Shown one piece after another: positions 3,001 to 6,000 of a stretch of DNA of 17,436 bases (the first letter of the stretch is position 1; each line of letters opens with the position of its first letter). The stretch comes from a virus (Duplodnaviria; Heunggongvirae; Uroviricota; Caudoviricetes), in the IMG/VR virus record IMGVR_UViG_2778261136_000004, positions 1 through 17,436 of that record; one strand, given 5' to 3'. A program made the position numbers.

Positions 3001-6000
3001 TTTCTTTCGTCCATGGATTAAGGCCGTACTGGTTGGCAACGATCAGCAATGCGATGAACTGCGCATCGCTGGCATCACCTTTAAATGCAGTCTGGCGAAG
3101 AGTGGTGATCAGTTCCTGTGGGTCGACAGAATCCATGCCGACACGTTCAGCCAGCTTCCCTGCCAGCGTTGCGAGAGCTGTACTCATCTGGTTTATACCT
3201 CTGAATCAATATAAATCTGGTGGCGGGCAATGGTTTCAACCATGTACCGGATGTGTTCTGCCATGCGTTCCTGAAAATCGACATCGTCATCAAATGCACG
3301 GGCAATGGCTTTTTTGCTGGCTCCATGACGTTGCAGATTATCGATGCACAGCGATTCAAACAGGTGCTGGGGCAGACCTTTTTCCAGGTCGTCCGCCAGT
3401 TCAGTCTCATTTTCTTCACGGGCAATTTGCCGGTAGTGTCGTGCCCATGACTGCTCTTCAATGCGATCGGGGATAAGCCAGGCATTCATGATTTATCACC
3501 TCCAAAATTTTCAAGCCTGTTGGCAATCATGATTGCGATATCAGGGATTGCTGGCGCTGTTGCGACGCATGCAGGGTTTGCGCACAAACCATAGACGGCT
3601 GCAAGCACGAGCTGCCTTTTCCAGTCGAAATCTGCTTGCTCTGAATCATCATTATTGTCAGAAGCATCACTATCTGGATCGATGTGAACAACCGAATCGT
3701 GTTCCTGAGTTGTATCAACAGCATTTTTCTGAATGTATTCATTCTTCATTTGTGCCTGGTCATCTCCAGCAGCGGTCTCATTTTCTCCAAAAGTTTCAGC
3801 GTAAGTTTCATCTCCCATTACTGGACCACAGTCAGGGCAATGCCCGCCACTGTTCTGACCGCATGCGGTGCAAACCTTTTCCACTTCCTGTTGCATTACT
3901 GGCCCAGGCTGTTGCTCTTCCGGTCCGTTTTGTTGCGTATCCGGGCTGTTTTGTTCCACTTTGGATTGATTCTGGTCCTCAGTGTCGCGAGTCTGGATCC
4001 CCTTCACCCATTTCGGGTCGGTTGGGTCGCTGATGCCTTCAACGAACTCCCCACGAGAGGCAGCCAGCAATTTGTCTGCATCGACAGGATTTTTGGGCAA
4101 AATGTTTTTCCTGGCTTCATAGAGTTCTGCTCTCAGTTCCTGGTATTTCGTTTCTACAGATGAGACATTTTCCAGTGATTGCGTGTCCGCATTATGTTTA
4201 ACTGGAATTTCTTCCACTGATTCAGGCGCTGCCTGTTCATTAGACATTGCGTCCGATGTTTGCTGCTTTTCTTCATCGTCATGTATCTCTTCTGCTGTTC
4301 CGCGCTGCGGCATCGGGGCTGATGAGCGACCGCAGGCAATTTCCACGATTTCCGGATCCGGGTTAGAGTGATCGGTTTCGGTCAACACTTTGTTGAGATA
4401 TTCAGTCACGCGCGCCGGGATAGCCTCAATGCCAATTGGTGCTTCTTTCACTGAAGCCACCACAATGGCGCGGGAATAATCCAGCCCACCGGGCATGGCG
4501 ATGAATTTGTCACGGAAAACAGAAAAGGGCGGTTTATTCTCTGCAACGATTTCTTCAACGCGTTTTGCATGTGCAGGGTGCAGGTTATAAATATCCACAT
4601 CCATTGAACGGGCCAGAACGCCAGTGGCAATGTCTCGCGCCAGTGATGCCTGATTGTGGGTAAAGCCTTCGCCACGATCGGTAAGATTTCCGCCGCCAGC
4701 GTTAGCACCGGAAGGCGTACGGGTGATGCCTGTAACACAATTTCCTTTCTGCCATTCTTTTGTCAGCAATCCCTGATCCACATAGTCTGTTTTCATCCAG
4801 GTGGAGATGAACTTGTCGAATTCGGCCGGGCCGATATGACGGGTTGTTGAGTGAGAGAATGCCTTTCCAACGGATTGTGCCAGTCTTCCCAGATGATAAT
4901 TCGTCAGCTTATCCAGTTCTGGATGTGAACGCACAGCAGTAAGCAGGCTCTGAAGGTAACTGTCTTCTGTGTCCATCTCCAGACGAATCACCTGATTACG
5001 TTGTTCTGGTGTGGCGTGATGCCGGTATTTTCCATCTTCATCCTTGCTGAAGAAGAAGAGGTGAAGGAAGCGATGAGTAAGGCTCAGAGTGGCGACGGGA
5101 ATTTCACACTCAGAACAGTTATCGTCGCTGTCCGGGGATTCGCTTTTCTCCACATCATCCGGAATAGTTCCGTCCAGGTTATCGTTGTCATCGCCAGCAG
5201 TTGTGGCATCTTCACCGTTGATGTTGTCATCGAAGGGGATAGCCATCATGGTGATGCCATCGTTACCGCCTTTTTCATAGCGGTTGCAGAATTCAGTATC
5301 AAACACGCCTTCCGGTGGAAGGTCATTCACGACGGGGAAATTTACGCGAACGGGTTTTTTGAAATCATCCTCGTCGTAGCCTGCATCGTCCATGGCTGCA
5401 ATGCAGCGGGAAACTGCGACAGAAAGTTTTCTGGTATCAGCCCAGAAAAAACCGCCTTTGATGCCAAGGCGTTTTCTGACTTTATCGTTTTTTGCTTCGC
5501 AGTGCAGTGCAAAAGTTTGTTTATCAGCGCTCATTGTATTTAAACCTCTGGCTGGGTTAGAATTAGCGGCCCTTTGTCTGATTTCTCCGAATACAGTGAC
5601 GCAGGGGGTAGTCCGGCAGCCTGCGCTGCCGGATTTTTTATTTCAGTGTAAGGTTGCCTGGTTTGTTGTTTTGTGAGTTGTTTTTTTCTTTTCATGCTGG
5701 CAGTCAGAGCAGTTGCATTCGCCATTTTCTCTGAGAAGTTGAAGTGCCAGGGTCAGTTCCTGAATTCTTTGTGGTTCAATATGACTGTCGACAATTTCAG
5801 ATGCAGCATGAATATATGGGCTGGTGGTTTCGCAATATAAACCGAAGGAAACAAAGCGACTGTCTTTATATTCGTTATTTCCAACTTCTGTAAGCACTGA
5901 AAAAGAAAATACAAAGTCGATTTTGTATTCTTTGCATATTTTACTGATGCGTTCTGCAATTTCTTTGAGTTCATTTATTGCATCAGGGCTGGTTTCGGAA

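Follow-up and report, generated by a model that had tools for sequence, protein, structure and literature searches.

What would a strong rightward terminator do inside a leftward operon? This question arises in a 17,436-nucleotide (nt) stretch of DNA from a Caudoviricetes virus (IMG/VR record IMGVR_UViG_2778261136_000004, positions 1 to 17,436), referred to here as the window, in which all genes from int through N lie on the minus strand as a pL operon. In the 108-nt gap (5535-5642) between a gene for a protein of 128 amino acids (aa) and a 682-aa RecE-family gene, a GC hairpin and T-run point along the plus strand, with promoter-like hexamers upstream of them on the same strand. The gene order N-kil-128 aa-RecE-Gam-RecT-exo places this element at the entry to the recombination module, pointing against the operon, and the 682-aa gene is the first gene downstream of it on the operon strand. 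The explanation that we favour, with moderate confidence, is an independently transcribed cis-antisense small RNA (sRNA) of ~70 nt, complementary to the leader of recE-gam-recT-exo. Over the stretch tested, the window is 99.8% identical to Shigella phage POCJ13, a lambdoid phage of the Shiga toxin (Stx) type.

A plus-strand intrinsic terminator in the gap upstream of recE

The gap and its edges contain the following observed and predicted features.

5534-5539, plus strand: -35-like hexamer TTGTAT, matching the consensus at three of six positions; its first T doubles as the final base of the CAT start of the 682-aa gene
5540-5557, plus strand: spacer of 18 nt
5558-5563, plus strand: -10-like hexamer TAGAAT, matching TATAAT at five of six positions
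5569-5640, plus strand: predicted small RNA of ~70 nt, ending near 5637-5640; both ends are predictions
5569-5609, plus strand: predicted 5' stem-loop GCCCUUUGUCUG...CGCAGGGGGU, G·U-rich and abutting the terminator
5610-5635, plus strand: intrinsic terminator hairpin, with core stem 5613-5620 / 5625-5632 and loop CTGC at 5621-5624
5613-5620 and 5625-5632, plus strand: stem arms CCGGCAGC and GCTGCCGG, as read from the sequence
5633-5643, plus strand: T-tract ATTTTTTATTT; T5643 is the first base of the stop codon (TCA) of the 128-aa gene
5535-5642, minus strand: intercistronic leader of the pL-operon mRNA, the presumed cis target, with the Shine-Dalgarno sequence AGAGG at 5545-5549

The initial annotation had described a perfect GC stem of 8 base pairs (bp) with a T-run on the plus strand at 5613-5643, preceded by TTGTAT and TAGAAT at an 18-bp spacing, and the coordinates of all these parts prove exact. 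The stem is directly followed by the T-rich sequence AUUUUUUAUUU, and hairpin and U-tract together make an intrinsic terminator by definition on the plus strand. In a consensus scan this hairpin ranks first among 27 terminator-like sites, with 11 pairs including A-U and G-U extensions, seven of them GC, and a free energy of -19.5 kcal/mol. A stricter definition (a perfect stem of 8 bp or more, 6 or more of them GC, a loop of 3-8 nt, and T at 6 or more of the next 8 positions), applied to both strands of the 17.4 kb, retains only two sites, 5613-5643 on the plus strand and an OOP-like site at 9914-9935 on the minus strand. Dinucleotide shuffling (200 shuffles) gives a mean of 0.015 such sites per window, and the hairpin with its T-run is thus far beyond chance. 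A terminator acting on the minus strand is ruled out, since in that orientation the hairpin has no T-run after it.

An abundant transcript ends at the equivalent site of the K-12 Rac prophage

Term-seq data for E. coli MG1655 place a 3' end at NC_000913.3 1417486 on the plus strand, with TCTTGCCGGATACACACTGTTCATAGCCTGCGCCATACGCAGGCTATTTCT before and TTCAGATTTC after the site, and class it as antisense to racC (Adams et al., 2021; PMC7815308, Supplementary file 1). We find that this site is position 487 of the corresponding Rac locus (L045), 4 nt past the hairpin that occupies the same place upstream of recE. The 3' end is present in all three condition sheets, with average reads of 185,664 in LB at an optical density (OD) of 0.4 and 146,140 in LB at OD 2.0 (PMC7815308). 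On the same strand and in the same sheets, Spot 42 has 92,121 and 36,200 reads and SokC 66,698 (PMC7815308), so that at OD 0.4 the Rac 3' end has roughly double the Spot 42 count. The site is not discussed in the text of that paper (PMC7815308), the RefSeq annotation of K-12 has no RNA at 1417486 on the plus strand, with KilS the sole RNA annotated nearby, and no RNA between racC and recE is named in the literature searched. These data show that plus-strand transcription terminates at the positional homologue while the K-12 Rac prophage is repressed, and that the terminated RNA is abundant. Very probably, a short plus-strand RNA likewise ends at the hairpin in the window.

The layout is conserved across diverged recE-upstream regions

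Homologues of the 128-aa protein form 26 clusters found exclusively in E. coli, and a search of species-representative genomes with this protein returned zero matches. As this confinement implies little divergence, the anchor was changed to the RecE N-terminus, which gathered 50 distinct recE-upstream regions from more distant relatives. We group these into class A (the window type), class B (K-12 Rac), class C, class D (the Citrobacter type and others) and a fifth class, E. The gene upstream of recE is the 128-aa gene in class A and racC in classes B and C. The hairpins of the first four classes read as follows.

Class A: CCGGCAGC-CTGC-GCTGCCGG
Class B: ATAGCCTGCG-CCATA-CGCAGGCTAT, then TTCTTTCA
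Class C: GGCCTGCAC-AGT-GTGCAGGC, then TTTCTTTTTTT
Class D: GCCTGCAT-TTA-ATGCAGGC, then TTTTTT

The hairpin sequences are unrelated or diverged among classes A-D, and the four classes nevertheless have one layout in common: the start codon overlaps TTGTxT, TAnAAT follows after 17-18 nt, and beyond a 5' hairpin come a GC-rich hairpin, its T-rich tail and then the stop codon of the gene upstream. TTGTwT is kept throughout these classes, the -10-like hexamer is TAAAAT in the Rac-type classes, and the -10 positions A37, A39, A40 and T41 of the alignment (A3) are invariant. Class A and classes B-D differ over most of the spacer that separates the -10 hexamer from the Shine-Dalgarno sequence, which leaves TAnAAT as a conserved island beside diverged sequence. 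Every upstream region with TAnAAT in place has a plus-strand terminator 45-130 nt downstream of it. In class E, TAnAAT is absent at that place and only weak plus-strand hairpins are found. The promoter-like and terminator-like parts thus occur jointly, as in classes A-D, or not at all.

The members of class E (L049, L090, L096-L098, L104-L116) have a different recE leader, CATTGATAAACCTCAT..., and poor T-tails.

The pattern of substitution within the hairpin further points to pairing on the plus strand. Aligning the class B, C and D hairpins gives 95% paired cells and, in five of 11 pairs, changes on both sides (a two-column gap puts part of the rows for two class D variants, L126 and L134, out of register, and a few cells were set aside). 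The covariation score is reached by none of 500 shuffles, and sliding the partners against each other lowers pairing to 22-46%. All one-sided stem changes give G·U pairs on the plus strand. Correspondingly, the plus-strand fold is better than the minus-strand fold by 3-6 kcal/mol in seven of 14 hairpin variants and the reverse difference never exceeds 1.2 kcal/mol, as would be expected of a plus-strand RNA that tolerates G·U pairs. The T-rich tail lies on the plus-strand side of the hairpin in classes A-D and never on the minus side. Together with the Rac 3' end, we take these observations to show selection on the hairpin and a terminator function on the plus strand.

Among closer relatives, the window-type gap is present in 37 viral contigs and in 81 of 5,426 complete E. 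coli genomes, with the O104:H4 outbreak lineage among the latter. In the 5' arm, most of these class A relatives have CCGGTAGC; the resulting pair is G·U on the plus strand, whereas the minus strand is left with an A·C mismatch. Every class A copy that has not suffered a deletion retains the hairpin as well as the two hexamers.

A putative promoter and a predicted two-hairpin RNA

The conserved hexamers raise the question of whether the terminated RNA has a promoter of its own. We scored sigma-70-like sites with a simple position-weight model, whose frequencies follow published sigma-70 compilations, over the plus strand of the gap and 400 nt to its left in eight representatives. TTGTxT-17/18-TAnAAT is the best such site in seven of the eight and the sole site at a conserved position. 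A hexamer pair within 60 nt upstream of a terminator on the same strand has a chance probability of ~0.004, estimated post hoc. We see by eye neither a LexA box nor an extended -10 at the proposed promoter. Judging from these patterns, TTGTAT-18-TAGAAT is predicted to be a sigma-70 promoter of weak-to-moderate strength that overlaps the start codon of the RecE-family gene, and it is likely that this dedicated promoter makes the RNA of ~70 nt, from 5569 to ~5640.

The start of this RNA is set by the position of the -10 hexamer and its end by analogy with the K-12 3' end, 4 nt past the stem. The predicted RNA consists of two adjacent hairpins with a folding energy of -33.5 kcal/mol (z = -4.55); folded as minus-strand RNA, the gap gives z = -1.58. 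Two directly adjacent hairpins are predicted for each of the class A, B and C RNAs (z = -4.0 to -5.7), and a predicted 5' hairpin likewise abuts the terminator in classes B and C. No unpaired motif that might serve as a seed is common to the predicted RNAs of classes A-D.

The predicted RNA lies wholly within the minus-strand intercistronic leader and is fully complementary to it over 5569-5640. Elsewhere in the window its complementarity to possible trans targets is at chance level, at 11-12 nt. There is no ATG for a plus-strand small open reading frame (ORF) within 5565-5640. The locus also differs from a type I toxin-antitoxin pair: the overlapped stretch is non-coding, the neighbouring genes encode 128 aa and 682 aa, and the gap has no small ORF. 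Rfam gives no gathering-level match at 5450-5750 of the window, where only chance-level eukaryotic long non-coding RNA families appear at E <=10, and no match in the recE-upstream gap of nine related loci.

Weighing a cis-antisense RNA against other explanations

The favoured explanation would work as follows. Transcription from the sigma-70 promoter TTGTAT-18-TAGAAT would give a plus-strand RNA from near 5569, which would fold into a 5' stem-loop followed directly by the intrinsic terminator and end in the U-tract near 5637-5640. This RNA would pair with leaky or early pL transcripts to form a duplex of ~70 bp, which RNase III would cleave, as with lambda OOP on cII. Cleavage would separate the upstream kil/128-aa message from recE-gam-recT-exo and change the stability of one or both, so that expression of the recombination genes would be lowered or timed. 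Since the RNA is perfectly complementary to the pL intercistronic leader, action in cis is the simplest; and since it would not reach the Shine-Dalgarno sequence, it is unlikely to block ribosome binding directly and more likely to affect processing or stability. The OOP-like regulatory logic is suggested by analogy. Transcriptional interference may act in place of the RNA itself; the footprint of RNA polymerase at the promoter would cover the recE start. We regard as doubtful the broader proposal that one unnamed, constitutive and highly expressed antisense RNA, common to Rac-like and Stx-type prophages, gates RecE/Gam/RecT together with the kil-racC segment through processing. Under that proposal the RNA could additionally act on host transcripts.

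Several observations weigh against a promoter-driven RNA of this kind. The hexamers match only eight of 12 consensus positions, under the 9-of-12 cut-off of the scan, and TTGNNN-16..18-TANAAT occurs once in the window, at this site, where 2.4 occurrences are expected, so the pair by itself is not above chance. Conservation of the TTG could owe something to the abutting start codon, and the AAUUnUAA stretch could be a 5' untranslated region (UTR) or translation element of the minus-strand mRNA. Term-seq marks a 3' end and is silent on the 5' end. The experimental evidence all comes from K-12 Rac, whose RNA is unrelated in sequence to that of the window outside the promoter region. The predicted RNA ends ~20 nt before the Shine-Dalgarno sequence at 5545-5549 and does not overlap the ribosome-binding site. 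The class A 5' stem carries pair-breaking substitutions with no compensation. The main observation against an indispensable RNA body is a deletion lineage (23CRST047, cM8a and contigs L036 and L095) that has lost 38 nt, at ~5576-5613, and with them most of the 5' stem-loop; in E. coli 23CRST047 (L006) the shortened site lies at locus positions 1519-1588. This lineage keeps the hairpin, with two G·U pairs, and the T-tract, and its hexamers are degraded to TTGTGT and AAAAAT, which lowers the promoter score from 10.2 to 6.6.

The initial annotation is upheld in part. It had proposed a candidate plus-strand antisense RNA of roughly 70 nt: the terminator, the conserved -10 hexamer and the 3' end of the K-12 homologue agree with this, and the distance to the Shine-Dalgarno sequence and the loss of the RNA body in one lineage weaken the details. 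It had also named, as an outcome that would refute it, hexamers that are not maintained while the hairpin is; the two are kept together in the non-deleted class A copies, whereas in the deletion lineage the hairpin persists beside degraded hexamers.

One alternative is that the hairpin has no dedicated promoter and only stops antisense or read-in transcription, arriving from the recombination/int side or from spurious promoters inside genes, before it runs against the immunity region, N and kil. In favour of this, conservation is highest in the hairpin and T-tract, which survive the 38-nt deletion, the hexamers are weak by consensus and Term-seq gives a 3' end alone. However, an abundance of about twice that of Spot 42 fits a stable short RNA better than a spurious antisense tail. 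Further, the TAnAAT island is conserved across classes and always accompanied by the terminator, and a conserved 5' hairpin abuts it. In no class does a plus-strand gene lie within 400 nt to the left, and the proposed site is the best promoter-like one in seven of eight representatives. We consider a terminator without its own promoter unlikely; a block to convergent transcription by the hairpin alone, the alternative offered in the initial annotation, is likewise the less likely account. A further possibility, compatible with a cis role, is a trans-acting phage sRNA or sponge in the manner of DicF, AgvB and AsxR that pairs mainly with host or other phage RNAs. The predicted RNA is short, with two hairpins and, in the window version, a U6 tail, and appears to be constitutively abundant while its prophage is repressed. 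Many sRNAs of this sort are known from prophages (PMC4104026; Zhu, Shabalina and Storz, bioRxiv 10.64898/2026.05.13.724894). Yet the classes have no single-stranded seed in common and complementarity elsewhere in the window stays at chance. The K-12 Rac RNA is also absent from RIL-seq-derived sRNA tables and Hfq-CLASH tables, which may be incomplete, and its tail, UAUUUCU, is a poor Hfq site. A mainly trans-acting role thus appears quite improbable.

The inverted repeat also folds in the minus-strand RNA and directly follows a stop codon, a common spot for intercistronic stabilisers, so the hairpin might instead be a 3' stabiliser of the upstream cistron or a processing site, with an incidental T-run. 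This is hard to reconcile with substitutions that keep the plus strand paired through G·U and leave the minus strand with A·C mismatches, at a cost of up to 6 kcal/mol. Nor does it fit a T-rich tail found on the plus side in four classes and never on the minus side, a K-12 3' end on the plus strand, or the unremarkable minus-strand fold of the gap, and we judge a minus-strand function very improbable. That the element is a product of chance, or a relic terminator left over from a past mosaic junction, is suggested by its location at a junction between differing upstream genes (the 128-aa gene here, racC in Rac). Such an origin is extremely improbable in view of the rarity of strict terminators in shuffled windows, the retention of position and orientation across classes with compensatory changes, and the use of the K-12 counterpart in vivo.

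Comparison with known phage RNAs

Lambda OOP is a 77-nt cis-antisense RNA to cII, lying opposite the cII 3' end and the cII-O gap, and the duplex of the two is cleaved by RNase III. The RNA predicted here would resemble OOP as a short RNA with its own (putative) promoter, on the opposite strand within a lambdoid early operon, with a strong intrinsic terminator at its end and full complementarity to part of the operon mRNA. The two differ in that the present element lies in the pL rather than the pR operon and faces the recE intercistronic leader, not the 3' end of a coding region. They have no sequence similarity and occupy different positions, and are thus not homologous by these measures.

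The window has a separate OOP-like element, with a terminator at 9911-9938 on the minus strand, extending to ~9990, antisense within the 3' end of a cII-like gene (9666-9962, plus strand). Its sequence (...TCAGGATTTGCTCAGAACGTCCGGCCCCAACCGGACGTTTTTTATTT) resembles that of lambda OOP RNA, and because of this resemblance the element at ~9911-9990 (minus strand) is probably this phage's OOP homologue; Rfam flags no match at 9911-9938 on the minus strand.

The direct positional homologue of the predicted RNA is the unnamed RNA that ends at the K-12 Rac 3' end. Both have the same position and orientation, TTGTxT-18-TAnAAT over the recE start and a predicted two-hairpin architecture; they differ in the sequences of the RNA body and hairpins, in the upstream gene, which is racC in Rac, and in the weaker U-tract of the Rac version. 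RalA, too, is a small RNA of the Rac family that runs against the pL direction and ends in an intrinsic terminator, but it lies opposite ydaC, downstream of recT and ~3 kb away (PMC4041452). RalA acts via a 16-nt repeat on ralR mRNA and needs Hfq, whereas the present locus has no toxin partner. KilS and DicF-type RNAs are small RNAs of the same pL-operon region, near kil; unlike the present element, which has no Rfam family, they are on the sense strand, derived from a 5' UTR or processed, and match or resemble Rfam DicF. AgvB and AsxR of enterohaemorrhagic E. coli are very short prophage RNAs (51-60 nt) that consist mostly of a terminator hairpin, but their genes lie downstream of pR', at the moron site, and the RNAs bind Hfq and act as sponges of core sRNAs, with neither sequence nor position in common with the RNA considered here (PMC4104026). 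The Pas sRNAs lie near Q/pR' and differ from it in place and sequence.

As the identity of the racC-recE RNA, RalA, KilS, the Pas sRNAs and AgvB/AsxR are ruled out by their locations (at ydaC, on the sense strand at kilR, and at Q/pR').

Other RNA families appear in the window and in related loci. A full-length Rfam STnc100 match (195 bits) lies near Q/pR' of the window, at 16232-16445 on the plus strand; STnc100 is related to the prophage sRNA PasD (Zhu, Shabalina and Storz, 2026 preprint, 10.64898/2026.05.13.724894). An sRNA-Xcc1 match (75.7 bits, above the gathering score) lies in the replication/nin region, at 11689-11772 on the plus strand. In related loci, matches to the DicF, isrK and C4 RNA families occur 1-1.3 kb upstream of recE on the operon strand (L128, L049, L104 and L120; L096 and L113), and the annotated K-12 KilS region (L045, 1411-1466, minus strand) has a sub-threshold DicF match. 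Upstream of kil, the window itself has no match of the DicF, isrK or C4 type.

Implications for prophage recombination functions

Cis-antisense sRNAs of temperate phages are already familiar as a kind; the one predicted here is unannotated, and its position is conserved across diverged prophages. It would be a second OOP-type RNA of lambdoid phages, in the pL arm. RecE/RecT modules are drivers of prophage recombination and the basis of recombineering, yet few studies have addressed how they are controlled below the level of the prophage repressor. Placed at the entry to the module, an antisense RNA would add a regulatory layer. If the broader proposal of a common gating RNA, which we regard as doubtful, were true, RNA would control how leaky prophage recombination functions are and when they act, which bears on mosaicism, sbcA-type activation and recombineering.

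In K-12 the RNA is apparently among the more abundant small transcripts of the Rac prophage, and the Rac 3' end flags a gap in the K-12 annotation. The carriers of the window-type element include Stx-converting phages and a prophage of the O104:H4 outbreak lineage, so that any effect on induction or recombination would be of practical interest. The natural 38-nt deletion lineage could serve as a test of how important the RNA body is.

Genes of the surrounding pL operon

The genes around the element are as follows.

7773-8117, minus strand: N, pL operon
6115-6354, minus strand: kil, pL operon
5643-6029, minus strand: 128-aa gene, with a stop codon (TCA, 5643-5645) that abuts the T-tract and no Pfam family
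3486-5534, minus strand: 682-aa RecE-family gene, with start codon CAT at 5532-5534 and Pfam Exonuc_VIII at residues 53-197
3193-3489, minus strand: lambda-type Gam, between the RecE-like gene and RecT
2402-3187, minus strand: RecT, pL operon
1725-2405, minus strand: YqaJ-type exonuclease, downstream of RecT
1-1164, minus strand: int, pL operon

The 128-aa gene occupies the same slot as racC in Rac. Relatives of the 682-aa gene are annotated as RecE family or exodeoxyribonuclease VIII, and the protein itself matches Pfam only through the N-terminal Exonuc_VIII (residues 53-197), with no nuclease domain detected. Given a RecE-like protein of this kind together with a separate YqaJ exonuclease, the nuclease of this recombination module may be YqaJ rather than the RecE-like protein.

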